From the IMG/VR virus record IMGVR_UViG_2681813227_000017: DNA of 4,478 bases; one strand, 5' to 3'. The translations under genes were made by a program, and so were the position numbers. Source of the stretch: a virus (lineage: Duplodnaviria; Heunggongvirae; Uroviricota; Caudoviricetes). Under the pieces are notes generated by a model. That model was not told the origin of the DNA. It worked only from the letters and a program-made list of their open reading frames with translations, and did not search any database. Positions 1,632 through 4,478 of the stretch are shown here, one piece after another (position 1 is the first letter of the stretch; each line of letters starts with the position of its first letter).

Positions 1632-1725
1632 GCAGAATATTTTGCTGAAAAATGCGGTTTGCTCACACGGACGGATAACACGAAATCCTGCGAACTGACA
1701 AAAACTAAGTGAATAAAAGTAAAAA

Positions 1726-1760
1726 CCCCGTTTGTTGGCTGCAAGCGGGGTTTTGTGTTT
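1726..1760. terminator. Candidate rho-independent terminator hairpin, possibly bidirectional
   Basis: Stem CCCCGTTTG (1726-1734) pairs with CAAGCGGGG (1742-1750): 9 bp with one G-U pair and a 7-nt loop. TTTT follows at 1751-1754 on the + strand and AAAAA precedes at 1721-1725, giving a U-run on the other strand. It sits about 95 nt after the endolysin stop. Confidence 0.5.
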
Positions 1761-1829
1761 CCTGACTCTGGAAAAGTCAAAGGAGAAAGTGTGTTTGATT
1801 TTAGCAAACTGATTCGGGAGATTCGAGTG

Positions 1830-1928
1830 ATGGCTGAAAAATTATCCACCTGGAAGTTCATTCTTATCTGGCTGGTGTTTGTGATTATGGCCTCCGGTTA
1901 TTTCATCGGTCAGATACGCTGGTGGTGA
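1830..1928 (+). CDS. Small single-pass membrane protein, 32 aa (MAEKLSTWKFILIWLVFVIMASGYFIGQIRWW); function unknown
   Basis: Not in the ORF track because it is short. GGGAG at 1816-1820 lies 9 nt upstream of the ATG. Its TGA stop (1926-1928) is one base before the Rz ATG at 1930, suggesting translational coupling. An in-frame GTG at 1791 would give 45 aa. One hydrophobic helix is predicted. Confidence 0.35.
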   Translation: MAEKLSTWKFILIWLVFVIMASGYFIGQIRWW

Positions 1929-1929
1929 A

Positions 1930-2397
1930 ATGAACCGCGTACTGTGCGTGGTCATCATTGCCCTGCTGGTGGCCTGTGGTGCGCTTAGTCTGGGGCTGAA
2001 TCATTACCGTGATAACGCCATAACCTACAAAGAGCAGCGCGATAAAAAAGTCAGTGAGCTGGAGCAGGCAAATGCAACCATTACTGATATGCAGCAGCGC
2101 CAGCGTGATGTTGCTGCACTTGATGCCAGATACTCGAGGGAATTAGCCGATGCGAGAGCTGAAAATGAAACTCTTCGCGCTGACGTTGCCGCTGGTCGTA
2201 AGCGCCTGCGGATCAACGCCACCTGTCCAGGCTCCGTGCGTGAAGCCCCCGCCACCTCCGGCGTGGATAATGCAACCGGCCCCCAACTGGCAGACACCGT
2301 TACACGGGATTATTTCACCCTCAGAGAGCGGCTGATGACGATGCACAAGCAACTGGAAGGGGCACAGGACTATATCCGCACTCAGTGCCTGAAATAA
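1930..2397 (+). CDS. Rz: Rz inner-membrane spanin (i-spanin)
   Basis: 155 aa with an N-terminal signal-anchor segment and a charged coiled-coil-like body. Long stretches match lambda Rz as I remember it (NHYRDNAITYK, ITDMQ.RQRDVAALDA, RDYFTLRERL). A second ORF is embedded in its +1 frame. Confidence 0.92.
   Translation: MNRVLCVVIIALLVACGALSLGLNHYRDNAITYKEQRDKKVSELEQANATITDMQQRQRDVAALDARYSRELADARAENETLRADVAAGRKRLRINATCPGSVREAPATSGVDNATGPQLADTVTRDYFTLRERLMTMHKQLEGAQDYIRTQCLK
2150..2335 (+). CDS. Rz1: Rz1 outer-membrane lipoprotein spanin (o-spanin), fully embedded in Rz in the +1 frame
   Basis: 61 aa with a lipobox (VSAC, Cys20) and a proline-rich mature part (CVKPPPPPAWIMQP...GIISPSE) that matches lambda Rz1 closely by recall. 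The embedded arrangement is the same as in lambda. Confidence 0.9.
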   Translation: MRELKMKLFALTLPLVVSACGSTPPVQAPCVKPPPPPAWIMQPAPNWQTPLHGIISPSESG

Positions 2398-2747
2398 GTT
2401 TTGTTGATGCGCCGTATCGTCGCTGTATTCCCTCATTAACAGAGACCGCAGCCCGACAGGGAGACTCCTCTGCGCGAGTGTGCGGGGATAATCAAAAACG
2501 ATACACACCGGGGTTTACCGCGTTAACGGAGCGCGGCGTTGTCCCCTCATAGTCGCCTGTCCGGTGCGATGGTGGAAGAAGCCGGATGTTTATCACTATT
2601 AATTGATGACACAGAAATGGATTCATTGAATTTCAGCACGTTTTTGTATTCGTGTTATTGAACATCTGTTTATTTTACTTTTAACATATTGATAATAAAA
2701 AGAGCTGTAAATCTTTAGATGAGTCGATTTTGTCCGGGGAAGTTCAA

Positions 2748-2888
2748 ATGGATTTTATGCTGACGGTTTCTGGTGTGGTTATCCTGTCCATTGCTTATAC
2801 TGCAGATAAATATGGCTGCCATTTGTTATCACGTATTGGCGCTTATTGTTCGTTGATGCTGATTTTCTCGTCGCTTTTTTTTGAGTAA
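2748..2888 (+). CDS. Small hydrophobic peptide, 46 aa (MDFMLTVSGVVILSIAYTADKYGCHLLSRIGAYCSLMLIFSSLFFE); candidate small membrane protein
   Basis: Not in the ORF track because it is short. GGGGAAG at 2735-2741 lies about 6 nt upstream of the ATG, with an AT-rich region further upstream. Two hydrophobic segments. A 17-bp AT-rich near-palindrome (2889-2905) follows the stop. The only support is the RBS and hydrophobicity. Confidence 0.3.
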   Translation: MDFMLTVSGVVILSIAYTADKYGCHLLSRIGAYCSLMLIFSSLFFE

Positions 2889-3020
2889 GTTATATTAATT
2901 ATAACAAATAATTTTCTGTGTTATTTTTTCAGGCTATCCCGTCAGAGGGGAAGCCTGTACTGCCGGGGAGCGAATGGAAAACTGATGTGTCCGGTAACTG
3001 CGTGTTCTGTGAACACCATG

Positions 3021-3206
3021 TTACTTAATTATGTAATTCATACCCGAACTCTCTGTTGACAGCCTTCTTCTGCAGGCTTCAATAACCCACGCTGAAAAGT
3101 TTCCTGAACCTTTCAGATCAAGAGCGATGTTAATTTGTTCAATCATCTGGTTTGGAAATCGGATGTTGCGGGTTGTTGTTCTGCGGGTTCTGTTCTTTGA
3201 TGACAT
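3021..3206 (-). CDS. Small ribbon-helix-helix-like DNA-binding protein, 61 aa; resembles DUF3950/YlcI-type proteins found upstream of terminase genes in E. coli prophages (from memory)
   Basis: Minus-strand ORF MSSKNRTRRTTTRNIRFPNQMIEQINIALDLKGSGNFSAWVIEACRRRL..., with a basic N-terminus, a short beta-strand-like segment (NIRFP) and two helices, as in Arc/MetJ/CopG folds. GGGGAA is about 5 nt upstream of the ATG (which is CAT at 3204-3206 on the + strand). It is convergent with the 2748-2888 peptide and divergent from cos/Nu1. Confidence 0.55.
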   Translation of the reverse strand: MSSKNRTRRTTTRNIRFPNQMIEQINIALDLKGSGNFSAWVIEACRRRLSTESSGMNYIIK

Positions 3207-3353
3207 AATGTTTCCCCATATTCAGTGTTGCTGATTTGTATTATCTGAAGTTGCTTTTACGTTAATTTGATGCAGATCAATTAATACGATACCTGCGTCA
3301 TAATTGATTATTTGACGTGGTTTGATGGCGTAGATGCACGTTGTGACATGTAG

Positions 3354-3370
3354 ATGATAATTATTATCAT
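3354..3370. promoter_or_regulatory. Perfect 17-bp palindrome ATGATAAT-T-ATTATCAT; its core TGATAATnATTATCA matches the 7-1-7 Fur-box pattern. Candidate Fur box or operator.
   Basis: Read directly from the sequence: 3355-3361 TGATAAT, centre T at 3362, 3363-3369 ATTATCA. About 150 bp upstream of the minus-strand RHH gene start and about 35 bp before cosN. Several TAATTGAT-like inverted copies also lie at 3262-3309. Confidence 0.3.
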
Positions 3371-3405
3371 TTTGCGGGTCCTTTCCGGCGATCCGAGCGG
3401 TTACG

Positions 3406-3417
3406 GGGCGGCGACCT
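3406..3417. other. cosN: cosN: the 12-nt cohesive-end sequence GGGCGGCGACCT of the lambda type (terminase nicking site)
   Basis: 3400-3450 reads GTTACG|GGGCGGCGACCTCGCGGGTTTTCGCTATTTATGAAAATTTTCCGG, which matches the lambda right-end/left-end junction as I recall it, base for base across about 45 nt after the nick. The flank before it (GGGTCCTTTCCGG, about 3374-3390) resembles the lambda right-end region where cosQ lies. Confidence 0.85.
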
Positions 3418-3443
3418 CGCGGGTTTTCGCTATTTATGAAAAT

Positions 3444-3562
3444 TTTCCGGGAACCATGTCCGGTTTCTCTGCAAGTTAACTACATAAAAAATATAAAAAC
3501 AGGTTTTCCGTGAACCGGACATGCGCAAAAAATAGACATATAAACCGGACATGACCGGTTTT
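3444..3562. promoter_or_regulatory. cosB: cosB-like terminase small-subunit binding region: three copies of a CATGTCCGGTT(T) element (candidate R3, R2, R1) with an A/T-rich spacer that may be an IHF site
   Basis: CATGTCCGGTTT at 3455-3466 in one orientation; its reverse complement GAACCGGACATG at 3512-3523 and AAACCGGACATG at 3542-3553. The one-inverted, two-direct orientation pattern mirrors lambda R3 versus R2/R1. An A/T-rich stretch at 3471-3500 sits between the first and second copies. Identity to lambda ends exactly where lambda R3 would begin. Confidence 0.6.
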
Positions 3563-3600
3563 GTGCTGATTGTGAGGTAAGAGTTTTTGCGAGGTGAGGA

Positions 3601-4110
3601 GTGGCTACGCAGACTGAAGTTGCCAGGCATTTGAGTCTGACCGATCGCCAGCTTCGCAGATTGCAGAAATTGCCGGGTGCTCCGGTCTCGAATAAGCGAG
3701 GACAACTGGATCTGGATGCCTGGCGTGATTTTTACATATCGTATCTGAGGAGAAGTAAAAACGATGTGCCTGATGGCGATAGCGAAGACGACTATGAAGA
3801 AAAGTTACTCATTGCCAGATGGAAGTTGATCGAAGAACAGGCAATCGCCCAGCAATTAAAAAATCAGGCGTCCGAAGGAAAGCTTATTGACACCGGATTC
3901 TGTATTTTTGCCCTCAGTAAGCTGGCAATGGCGTTATCCAGTACGCTTGATTCCATCCCTTTATCCATGCAGCGACAGTTTCTTGATTTAACACCGCGCC
4001 ATCTTGACCATCTGAAAACCCTTATTGCGAAGGGGGCAAATCAGTGTGCGCGGGCAGGGGATAAATTACCGGATTTACTCGATGAATATATCAGAGCAAC
4101 AACTGAATAA
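3601..4110 (+). CDS. nu1: Terminase small subunit (Nu1-like)
   Basis: 169 aa starting at GTG 3601, the first start after an in-frame TGA at 3595-3597; GAGG lies at 3590-3593. The C-terminal half matches lambda Nu1 by recall (FCIFALSKLA...LSMQRQF...RHLD...LPDLLDEYI versus lambda FCTFVLSRIA...LSVQRRF...RHVD...IPGLLSEYI). The N-terminus has the helix-turn-helix region in a divergent form. Confidence 0.92.
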   Translation: MATQTEVARHLSLTDRQLRRLQKLPGAPVSNKRGQLDLDAWRDFYISYLRRSKNDVPDGDSEDDYEEKLLIARWKLIEEQAIAQQLKNQASEGKLIDTGFCIFALSKLAMALSSTLDSIPLSMQRQFLDLTPRHLDHLKTLIAKGANQCARAGDKLPDLLDEYIRATTE

Positions 4111-4478
4111 TATGATGGCTGCCGTTTCGGTTGCGCTGCAGCCTCTGGTCAGGGTTGTACCGATGACGGCAGTTGAATGGGCTGATCAAAATTATTATCT
4201 GCCTAAAGAATCCTCATACGGTGACGGCGAATGGAAAACTCTGCCATTCCAGATCGCCATTATGAACTGTATGGGTAACGACCAGGTTCGCACGGTTAAC
4301 CTGATTAAATCTGCCCGTGTTGGCTATACAAAGATGTTGCTGGGGGTGGTCGGGTATTTTATTGAGCATAAATCCCGAAACAGTCTGCTTTTTCAGCCCA
4401 CGGATTCTGCCGCTGAAGATTTTATGAAGTCTCACGTGGAGGCGACGATTCGGAACGTGCCATGCCTGAAAGACCTTT
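4082..4478 (+). CDS. A: Terminase large subunit (gpA-like), N-terminal part; runs off the 3' end of the window
   Basis: My own translation from ATG 4082: MNISEQQLNNMMAAVSVALQPLVRVVPMTAVEWADQNYYLPKESSYGDGEWKTLPFQIAIMNCMGNDQVRTVNLIKSARVGYTKMLLGVVGYFIEHKSRNSLLFQPTDSAAEDFMKSHVEATIRNVPCLKDL. It matches the lambda gpA N-terminus (MNIS..., TAVEWAD.NYYLPKES, KSARVGYSKMLLGV, YFIEHK, PTD...FMK.HVE). It overlaps the Nu1 3' end by 29 nt in another frame, as in lambda. It is absent from the ORF track because it has no stop in the window. Confidence 0.92.
   Translation, partial: MNISEQQLNNMMAAVSVALQPLVRVVPMTAVEWADQNYYLPKESSYGDGEWKTLPFQIAIMNCMGNDQVRTVNLIKSARVGYTKMLLGVVGYFIEHKSRNSLLFQPTDSAAEDFMKSHVEATIRNVPCLKDL

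Follow-up and report, generated by a model that had tools for sequence, protein, structure and literature searches.

The DNA between the lysis genes and cos of one lambdoid phage raises the question of whether two small open reading frames (ORFs) lying there side by side act together or have only come to be neighbors. The window analyzed here is a stretch of 4,478 nucleotides from a Caudoviricetes virus (IMG/VR record IMGVR_UViG_2681813227_000017). In its 2398-3400 region, an earlier note had described an accessory island carrying a hydrophobic peptide and a small DNA-binding protein as a possible toxin and regulator. The current work indicates that this region is probably a standard lambdoid cargo ("moron") slot, running from the spanin genes to cos and consisting of four independently inherited pieces rather than a single functional module. 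The accessory nature of the slot is borne out, with variable cargo flanked by conserved backbone, and the 46-aa and 61-aa ORFs lie where the note had placed them (Table 1). The slot is ordinary for lambdoid phages; its cargo is uncharacterized.

Table 1. Positions of the features in and next to the cargo slot, numbered from the first base of the window
Feature	Position	Strand	Basis or remark
Segment A spacer	2408-2600, core 2408-2523		Homology to lambda and 434; GC-rich, non-coding backbone
Imperfect hairpin	2510-2546		Folds on the + strand with -17.6 kcal/mol
AT-rich insertion cassette, comprising segments B, C and D with the last ylcI codons	2601-~3065		All-or-none presence
35-nt block, candidate promoter element	2668-2702		100% identical between lineages that are ~22% diverged around it
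46-codon candidate ORF MDFMLTVSGVVILSIAYTADKYGCHLLSRIGAYCSLMLIFSSLFFE	2748-2888	+	ORF list; PGAP WP_000347013.1
T8 homopolymer at the 3' end of the ORF	2875-2882	+	Length differs between genomes
ylcI/ynfO (DUF3950), 61 aa	3021-3206	-	Pfam, NCBIfam and PHROGs; PGAP WP_001329960.1
Lambda right-end homologue (ylcI upstream region and cosQ)	3207-3405		Alignment to lambda and 434
cosQ GGGTCCT	3376-3382	+	Transferred from the curated 434 annotation (L002 2805-2811, offset 571)
12-nt cohesive-end sequence GGGCGGCGACCT in cosN	3406-3417	+	Read directly; starts after the lambda-end base

Among 80 related loci, the segments of the slot come and go independently, which gives the region a mosaic structure. 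In other loci the same slot contains a lipoprotein-like ORF, a 141-aa ORF (which we take to be YbcV-like), bor or other ORFs as cargo. The absence of bor reported in the earlier note is confirmed, since a tblastn search of the window with the 434 Bor protein gave a best E of 4.5 and no Bor/Iss lipoprotein was found between Rz and cos. Both ORFs are annotated by PGAP in an E. coli chromosome, within a prophage and with 100% identity to the window, the shorter one as "hypothetical protein" and the longer one as "YlcI/YnfO family protein".

The right ends of lambda and 434 (Rz/Rz1, bor, spacer, DUF3950 ORF, cosQ and cosN) have the gene order and orientation of the window. Segment A is homologous in both phages (lambda 46868-46981; in 434 it separates bor from the DUF3950 gene), the YlcI core differs from that of the window at about 4 of 49 residues, and the last 199 bp, including cosQ, are 90-93% identical. 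However, lambda and 434 possess bor (lambda also lambdap78/p79), whereas the window has none of these and contains instead a 465-bp insert with the 46-codon ORF between segment A and ylcI, by which the C-terminal tail of YlcI is replaced. The cosB and the small terminase subunit of the window also belong to another specificity type (repeats AACCGGACATG).

The rightmost piece can be assigned with precision. Window positions 3072-3405 align with lambda 48169-48502 at 90% identity, and with 434 and other lambdoid phages at 93%. Base 3405 pairs with 48502, the final base of the lambda record, and 3207-3405 is the counterpart of the terminal 199 bp in the lambda chromosome. Between the window and strain SHP24 this part is 98% identical and the adjacent ylcI 82%. 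The 7-bp cosQ lies upstream of a 12-nt lambda-like cohesive-end sequence, the arrangement of a lambda-type cos, and the 12-mer is the lambda cohesive end itself. The cosQ subsite serves in packaging termination (roles of the cos subsites in PMC4669245), and the copy in the window would end packaging in cis. The stretch 3207-3370 had been considered regulatory-looking and full of inverted repeats, but it is conserved lambda right end adjoining cosQ, and its 8 inverted repeats compare with 3.5 +/- 2.4 expected, a count reached by 8.7% of shuffles. A common operator upstream of ylcI was also considered and rejected: the ylcI genes of prophages with an HNH-type packaging module have nothing in common with 3207-3370, and the cos-type and HNH-type contexts share no k-mer of 9 nt or longer.

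The 61-aa protein belongs to the DUF3950/YlcI family, as the earlier note had supposed. It scores 67.5 bits against Pfam PF13132 (cut-off 25; E=9e-19) and 35.2 bits against NCBIfam NF041551 (curated cut-off 30), and matches phrog_949 at E=9e-32. The same note had called it divergent; it is in fact an unexceptional representative of a family that is very common. Copies of the ylcI core numbered 9,487 and were spread over 4,174 of 5,426 complete E. coli genomes. There is almost no variation in residues 1-49; the C-terminal tails differ with the neighboring cargo. With a dN/dS of 0.04-0.06 at a dS of 0.75-0.85, the core is, as judged from substitutions, under strong purifying selection. Thus ylcI is a strongly constrained backbone gene in lambdoid phages, and among the small prophage genes of E. 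coli it ranks with the commonest and with those under the strongest constraint (dN/dS about 0.05). Lambda itself contains an intact copy at 48109-48303 that has no RefSeq annotation. The ylcI gene of DLP12 and the ynfO gene of Qin in K-12 belong to the same family, in which the window protein scores above the curated cut-offs, and both lie next to the terminase-like noh gene, a position like that in the window. To our knowledge, no member of the YlcI/YnfO family has a known function, so that the name adds nothing mechanistic.

A ribbon-helix-helix (RHH) fold had been suggested for this protein, and the pattern is indeed RHH-like. YlcI resembles the P22 repressors Arc and Mnt in size and in having a basic N-terminal arm, a strand-like motif and two helices split by a Gly-rich turn. 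The AF2 monomer (overall pLDDT 72) is extended over residues 1-18 and forms helices at 19-32 and 37-59 with pLDDT 85-90, which fits a strand-helix-helix topology of about 45 residues, the strand itself not being called in a monomer without its dimer partner. Matches to known members are weak. In hhalign, YlcI is placed against Arc in the correct register ("NIRFP" on "NLRWP"), but with P=0.018 and a probability of 2.5%; a Foldseek search of the PDB returned HP0222 first and AtaR2 fourth, both RHH proteins, at E>1; the HicB-like antitoxin family phrog_497 was matched at E=0.012; and neither YlcI nor 10 distant relatives matched an RHH family in Pfam. From the pattern and these weak matches, it is plausible that YlcI is a small RHH-type DNA-binding protein.

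The position of ylcI invites another reading, in which the protein is a packaging accessory acting at or near cos or terminase and not a transcription regulator. The gene is always found at the boundary of the packaging module, beside cosQ or beside HNH-TerS, and a satellite-like element encodes one distant relative in which DUF3950 is fused to Terminase_2. However, this fusion is a single protein. Other distant DUF3950 members lie in unrelated contexts where no terminase is close by, beside integrases, beside cdtABC and transposases, or, in a conjugative island, beside CbtA toxins, and a general DUF3950-terminase link was rejected. In addition, ylcI is oriented away from the late/packaging operon and opposes it, and minimal cos fragments are packaged without ylcI in cis. 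We consider a packaging role for YlcI very unlikely.

The AT-rich insert has a different distribution. It was found at 788 places in 734 of the 5,426 complete E. coli genomes, and among the 80 related loci it behaves as a unit that is either present or absent. Its GC content is 0.33-0.40 against 0.50-0.59 in the flanks, and on its right side lambda homology picks up again at 3072. The comparisons place the insert in E. coli prophages exclusively and show that it contributes the final codons of ylcI. It occurs together with ylcI beside another type of packaging module (HNH/TerS), and in three loci (L084-L086) it occurs without any ylcI.

Morons are extra DNA between the backbone genes of lambdoid phages (Juhala et al. 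2000, in the passage cited in PMC4104026). The insert corresponds to this description: it sits between backbone genes, is present or absent among relatives, has a base composition unlike that of its flanks, and occupies the slot of bor and other lysogenic-conversion cargo. It differs in that its coding is only a candidate and in that a scan for consensus sites found no convincing promoter or terminator of its own around the cargo, the two that make up the classical moron signature. Promoter-like sites numbered 3, with 3.0 expected from shuffles, and terminator-like sites were likewise not in excess. One stretch may be a promoter element. When the window was aligned with strain SHP24, a 35-nt block upstream of the 46-codon ORF was found unchanged. 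The cassette has a single consensus promoter-like site (- strand, TTTACA-17-TATGTT, from 2711 to 2683), whose -10 falls within this block.

The 46-codon ORF keeps its frame open in three lineages. These have the positions of start and stop in common although nucleotide identity falls as low as 82%, and all of them retain a Shine-Dalgarno-like GGGGAA at 2736-2741. The predicted product has two hydrophobic segments of about 15-17 residues each with a conserved polar loop, and its C-terminus varies, ending in ...LFF, ...LFFE, ...FFFLSKLY (P0002, 46 member sequences) or ...FFELSYIN. At 18% divergence the dN/dS is 0.27-0.31, the lowest of the six frames, with simulations giving P of about 0.06-0.08. 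A 94%-identical lineage by itself pointed to no purifying selection on the ORF, a reading softened by the 82%-identical SHP24 lineage, in which dN/dS is 0.31.

The opposite reading is that the ORF is not a gene but a frame that happens to be open on a T-rich strand, the insert being non-coding, AT-rich DNA that is a remnant in decay or carries regulatory sequence such as 2668-2702. Among dinucleotide-preserving shuffles of the insert, 44% hold an ATG-initiated ORF of 46 codons or more; the GRAVY of 1.11, against 0.58 +/- 0.45 for shuffled + strand frames, is reached by 11.5% of these frames. Where the strand is T-rich, a hydrophobic mini-ORF is thus no evidence by itself. Homologues were found in E. 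coli only, in 16 clusters, with nothing more distant among 5.8 billion proteins. The 94%-identical lineage has 7 substitutions, 5 of them non-synonymous, and its ORF has changed at the rate of the flanks; variable sites are distributed 11:8:15 over the codon positions, a skew that is not significant; and frameshift, deletion/truncation and poly-T variants occur. On the other side stand the low dN/dS and the retained start codon, stop position and GGGGAA motif. Moreover, the substitutions are largely conservative (V/I, S/A, F/L, M/I), the central ADKYG..LLSRIGAYC is invariant, and variability in the ORF (24.6%) is below that of segments B (30.6%) and D (54.5%). A chance frame has, in our estimation, somewhat less than an even chance of being the correct explanation. 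The support for coding is conservation and nothing else; from it, the ORF may specify a small protein in which two segments are hydrophobic. Since there is some sign of purifying selection on the ORF (dN/dS about 0.3), the cargo may well have a function.

The proposal that a toxic membrane peptide is paired here with an RHH-like regulator or antitoxin, in a toxin/regulator, exclusion or lysogeny module, could draw on the two hydrophobic segments and polar loop of the peptide, on its open frame in three lineages, and on the RHH-like pattern and weak HicB-like match of YlcI. However, the two are not inherited together: the insert, at 788 places against 9,487 for ylcI, lies beside at most 8% of ylcI copies and also occurs without the gene. 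Nor are they arranged as an operon, being convergent and 132 nt apart; the adjacent, co-transcribed and co-inherited genes of a type II toxin-antitoxin system are thus not seen. The length and hydrophobicity of the 46-codon ORF are at chance level for T-rich DNA, and the sequence upstream of the window ylcI is not shared by ylcI copies in other contexts. Homology searches of the peptide, as the earlier note had advised, returned no match in Pfam, PHROGs, NCBIfam or PADLOC; no toxin, antitoxin or defense family of these collections was matched in the locus, and the defense-system models of PADLOC matched none of the small ORFs.

Type I toxins (Hok, Ldr, TisB, Ibs, ShoB and ZorO) are also short hydrophobic ORFs in mobile elements. 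Unlike them, the 46-codon ORF matches no family, has two short hydrophobic segments in place of one transmembrane helix, and lies in a locus that is not repeated outside prophage copies. A cognate antisense or divergent sRNA with a terminator was not detected: the - strand has one weak promoter-like site with no terminator after it, and an Rfam search at E<=1 matched nothing within 2398-3400. Neither known toxin homology nor an antisense sRNA therefore marks the locus as type I. We regard a toxin/regulator module as highly improbable. The apparent pair of adjacent small ORFs is better understood as a mosaic recombination accident at a known cargo slot, and the peptide and YlcI would have become adjacent through recombination, not as partners.

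The expression of the slot can be sketched by analogy with lambda biology and K-12. Late transcription from PR', Q-antiterminated on induction, would cross the + strand through lysis genes, spacer, ORF, cos and terminase. As a result of such read-through, the 46-aa peptide, if translated at all, would be made late as a small membrane protein. Expression of ylcI would be separate, with transcription from the other strand running toward the + strand cargo. In a K-12 RNA-seq survey, ybcW and ylcI form a convergent overlapping pair (PMC12288877). In DLP12, ylcI faces ybcW, and in the window it faces the 46-codon ORF, so that a convergent layout with a small + strand gene is found in both.

The left part of the slot had been described as about 340 nt of GC-rich non-coding sequence. 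About 350 nt from Rz to the ORF do lack an annotated gene, and the GC content falls from 0.555 (2401-2600) to 0.33 (2601-2800). The GC-rich part, segment A, is 79% identical to its lambda counterpart and 84% identical to that of 434, an unannotated spacer from bor to the DUF3950 gene. Its core occurs at 4,468 places, spread over 1,852 of the 5,426 complete E. coli genomes, and is annotated in none. A non-coding block of ~115 nt is therefore conserved from lambda to thousands of prophages without annotation. A conserved reading frame is excluded because homologues differ by indels of 1, 2 and 11-12 nt; these frame-breaking indels also dispose of the + strand ORF 2385-2552, which matches phrog_6954 "Rz-like spanin". 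Segment A is not a bor remnant either, having no Bor similarity and corresponding to the spacer that lies upstream of bor in 434 as well as in lambda. A genome-wide pattern scan for it returned mostly lambda control-DNA contamination and chance matches.

The conservation of segment A could reflect a structured RNA of the late + strand transcript, maintained from lambda to the prophages, which might stabilize or process the long late mRNA. Compared with column-shuffled alignments, the consensus fold of segment A is better on the + strand (z=-2.2 to -3.7) but not on the - strand (z=+0.8 to -0.8). Across 15 sequences, 98% of pair cells are paired, and unpaired columns are 2-4 times denser in substitutions. 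In 8 sequences that played no part in deriving the fold, pairing survives in 33 changed cells and is lost in 11, of which 6 come from one truncated contig; one new compensatory change, C-G to U-A, was seen in the same sequences. However, the alignment consists of close relatives and is itself the source of the structure, nearly all of the support consists of G-U-compatible transitions, and double-sided changes number just 2-3. Single-sequence stability is unremarkable and not strand-specific (z=-0.3/-0.9 in the window, +0.4/+0.2 in L131, -2.4/-3.1 in lambda), and the minimum-energy fold of the window's own segment A retains only the outer helix. In addition, Rfam gave no match, and segment A is wholly absent from some ylcI-bearing prophages. 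A structured RNA appears unlikely on balance. The combined proposal, in which the segment A core (~115 nt) is an RNA element of the late transcript and the 46-aa product of the insert is a late membrane protein acting with the upstream lysis cassette, is equally doubtful. The known prophage sRNAs AgvB/AsxR and the Pas sRNAs, tried as candidates, map near PR'/holin, away from the slot between Rz and cos.

The imperfect hairpin in segment A does fold, as the earlier note had seen, but it is no more stable than shuffled sequence (z=-1.7 on the + strand and -1.2 on the - strand). The 11-12-nt deletion has removed it from lambda and also from one prophage lineage (L081/L082). In 434 it is kept, with two pairs changed on both sides as read from the alignment.

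The window spans 4,478 bp in the late region of a lambdoid E. coli prophage, and the E. coli UTAK-1 chromosome matches its interval 2398-3400 at 100% identity. This interval is a mosaic and not a module: an ordinary lambdoid cargo slot, in which a narrowly distributed, previously uncharacterised cassette adjoins a very common backbone gene. When its segments were mapped onto 80 IMG/VR loci encoding a YlcI relative, together with lambda, 434 and phage PPyecE_EH1910, they proved to be inherited independently of one another. Segments B, C and D (2601 to about 3065, here called the insert) are either all present or all missing. Homology to lambda restarts at 3072, within the 3' end of ylcI; thus, the last YlcI codons come from the insert. 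In insert-free loci the slot holds a lipoprotein-like 110-aa ORF, a 141-aa minus-strand ORF (which we take to be YbcV/DUF1398-like), a 104-aa ORF, or bor. Among 5,426 complete E. coli genomes, the insert was found at 788 places in 734 genomes, the ylcI core at 9,487 places in 4,174, and the core of segment A (2408-2523) at 4,468 places in 1,852, annotated in none. The interest of the interval rests on the strongly constrained DUF3950 gene, left out of the lambda reference annotation, and on segment A, which is conserved but likewise lacks annotation.

Features of the window
Feature	Position	Strand	Remark
DUF1327 protein	66-1055
Lysozyme	1098-1631
45-aa ORF	1791-1928		WP_000459345.1 (PGAP); phrog_6632, E=1e-29; has hydrophobic segment
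Rz	1930-2397
Rz1	2150-2335		embedded in Rz
Interval in question, then lambda-type cos	after Rz, before small terminase
46-aa ORF	2748-2888	+	WP_000347013.1 (PGAP), 'hypothetical protein'
61-aa ORF (ylcI)	3021-3206	-	WP_001329960.1 (PGAP), 'YlcI/YnfO family protein'
cosQ, GGGTCCT	3376-3382		position transferred from 434 annotation
Cohesive-end sequence	begins 3406
Nu1-like small terminase	3601-4110		large terminase start lies beyond

The earlier note had placed the 46-aa and 61-aa ORFs correctly, and its outline of the slot agrees with the present data: about 350 nt 3' of Rz carry no annotated gene, GC content falls from 0.555 (2401-2600) to 0.33 (2601-2800), and bor is absent (434 Bor protein against the window by tblastn, best E 4.5). 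The hairpin it described at 2510-2546 lies within chance (z=-1.7/-1.2 against shuffles). Its interpretation of the hydrophobic peptide and the small regulator as a toxin/regulator module is not supported. The insert adjoins at most 8% of ylcI copies, and in the prophage lineage with a 94%-identical insert (L084-L086) it occurs without a DUF3950 gene, and a different packaging module comes after it. Distant members of DUF3950 occur singly in a variety of mobile-element contexts, and the 46-codon ORF and ylcI are convergent and do not form an operon. On these grounds the two were rejected as a pair.

In lambda, Q-antiterminated late transcription from PR' reads the lysis genes, cos and the terminase genes on the plus strand. 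By analogy, a late PR' transcript would cross the whole plus strand of the window, lysis genes, cos and terminase included, so that the peptide, if translated, would be made late. Judging from K-12, ylcI would be transcribed from the opposite strand, towards the cargo; in K-12 DLP12, ybcW and ylcI have the same convergent layout as in the window and form an overlapping transcript pair in an RNA-seq survey (PMC12288877).

YlcI falls squarely within DUF3950 / NF041551, the family named in the earlier note for the homology search, and the description of a divergent DNA-binding-type protein does not hold. The family is compact: its members among 1.8 billion representatives fall into 106 clusters at 50% identity. 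Residues 1-49 are nearly invariant, and the C-terminal tail varies with the adjoining cargo. Against SHP24 (a strain with a diverged cassette), lambda, 434 and PPyecE, the dN/dS of the ylcI core is 0.04-0.06 at dS 0.75-0.85; the core is under very strong purifying selection. Lambda itself (NC_001416) carries an intact 64-aa DUF3950/YlcI ORF at 48109-48303 on the minus strand, 200 bp from the right end; compared with the copy in the window, its core has a dN/dS of about 0.04. The RefSeq lambda record omits this ORF and annotates only lambdap79 (+) further left; the DUF3950 copy of 434 is annotated in the curated record.

Two further arrangements of the domain were observed. In L088 (4001-4390), a 129-aa protein, P0206, has DUF3950 fused to the N-terminal portion of a small terminase subunit (Terminase_2, E=2e-6), in a small element with integrase and primase that looks like a phage satellite. 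The other case is that of L091 (1330-4189) and L092, where transposases flank a cdtABC-like (cytolethal distending toxin) cluster and the distant DUF3950 gene P0194 follows about 440 nt downstream; thus, the gene accompanies toxin cargo beyond the layout of the window too.

The status of the 46-codon ORF is less clear-cut. Its product matches nothing in Pfam, PHROGs, NCBIfam or PADLOC, and among 5.8 billion proteins its relatives form 16 near-identical clusters, restricted to E. coli, several of them frameshifted or truncated, including a poly-T variant of 51 aa that has 46 member sequences. Of the dinucleotide-preserving shuffles of the insert, 44% contain an ATG ORF of 46 codons or more, and the GRAVY of 1.11 (0.58 +/- 0.45 in shuffled plus-strand frames) is reached by 11.5% of such frames, hydrophobic frames being the default on the T-rich strand. 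Coding was examined by comparing three diverged lineages. Against L084-L086, 5 of 7 coding substitutions are non-synonymous, and the ORF changes as fast as its non-coding flanks (5.7% vs 4.1%). In the comparison with the SHP24 lineage (82% identity) the frame is still open with start and stop unchanged, the central ADKYG..LLSRIGAYC is invariant, swaps in the hydrophobic flanks are conservative, and the dN/dS of 0.31 is lower than in the other five frames (0.55-1.7). Random placement of the same substitutions left the ORF open in 51% of trials, gave a BLOSUM score at least as high as observed in 7.9%, and both jointly in 5.7%, which is borderline. Across 20 haplotypes, variable sites make up 24.6% of the ORF, 30.6% of B and 54.5% of D, with a codon-position ratio of 11:8:15 in the ORF; one mid-ORF frameshift occurs, and the T8 tract is altered in several. 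That the ORF is kept as coding among relatives finds support in the SHP24 comparison, borderline in the simulations, while the L084-L086 comparison and the frameshifted variants count against it; the balance tilts slightly towards a weakly constrained small protein. Such a product, if real, would have a conserved polar loop between two hydrophobic segments, each about 15-17 residues long.

Upstream of this ORF, a 35-nt block (2668-2702) is 100% identical in two cassette lineages whose sequences to either side have diverged by about 22%; it overlaps the -10 of a minus-strand promoter-like site, TTTACA-17-TATGTT (2711->2683).

Segment A (2408-2600) belongs to the backbone. In lambda, the sequence that aligns with its core is 46868-46981, between bor and lambdap78; in 434 it is the unannotated spacer between bor and the DUF3950 gene. 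A plus-strand ORF across the segment matches the PHROG family 'Rz-like spanin'; a protein was nevertheless rejected and the segment regarded as non-coding, because homologues show indels of 1, 2 and 11-12 nt. That it acts as a functional RNA is improbable, although a plus-strand consensus fold (40 pairs, 98% paired across 15 sequences) has some support, exceeding column shuffles (z=-2.2 to -3.7) where the minus strand does not (+0.8 to -0.8). The fold holds moderately in 8 sequences outside the derivation set (33 changed cells paired, 11 not; one new compensatory change). It is weakened by single-sequence stability, which is unremarkable and shows no strand-specificity (z: window -0.3/-0.9, related locus L131 +0.4/+0.2, lambda -2.4/-3.1), and by the window's own minimum-energy fold, which retains the outer helix alone. 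The default reading of segment A is a conserved recombination linker between cargo sites.

At the right end, window 3072-3405 shares 90% identity with lambda 48169-48502 and 93% with 434 and other lambdoid phages, which identifies this part with the lambda end, including cosQ. The window and SHP24 agree at 98% over this block but at only 82% over the adjoining ylcI; the block owes its conservation to the cos region to which it belongs. [quoted passage not shown] The region 3207-3370, previously considered rich in inverted repeats, has 8 against 3.5 +/- 2.4 expected (8.7% of shuffles reach 8), which is no more than chance; nor do promoter-like sites exceed chance (3 vs 3.0 expected). In HNH/TerS-type prophages, ylcI lies 41 nt from a divergent HNH gene, and these loci share no k-mer of at least 9 nt with 3207-3405, so a YlcI operator there lacks comparative support. 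The Pfam Phage_Nu1 match covers only residues 49-150 of the small terminase, so its N-terminal DNA-recognition part differs; together with the cosB repeats described below, this suggests a non-lambda packaging specificity joined to lambda-type cosQ/cosN.

Several other features of the window were recorded. The cosB region (3443-3571) contains AACCGGACATG / CATGTCCGGTT repeats in both orientations (3455-3465, 3513-3523, 3543-3553, 3550-3560), unlike the lambda sequence downstream of cosN. The ORF at 66-1055 is uninterrupted (329 aa), with a DUF1327/YdfR-like domain followed by segments matching phrog_36381 and phrog_26186; PGAP calls its first 336 nt only, as a partial YdfR-family pseudogene. 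An insertion of about 300 nt (1632-1929) separates the lysozyme gene from Rz and contains a strong hairpin at about 1724-1756 flanked by an A-run and a T-run (aaaaaccccg...cggggtttt), the 45-aa ORF at 1791-1928, and a match to the Rfam rimP leader that falls below threshold (1698-1787, minus strand, E=0.058).

A further 26 loci (in the range L100-L156) match the right end of lambda at 99% identity or more; they lie on contigs of 26 species-representative assemblies, whose taxa (among them Pseudomonas, Bacillus, Cohnella and Flavobacterium) are unrelated. Many of these contigs are about 3.5 kb or 48.4 kb long, and one is the 3,566-bp 'Arcanobacterium hippocoleae plasmid unnamed1' (CP136411.1). 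They look like lambda control DNA left in assemblies, partly deposited as 'plasmids'. A paper on A. hippocoleae reportedly mentions ylcI and ynfO, which the control DNA in that assembly probably explains.
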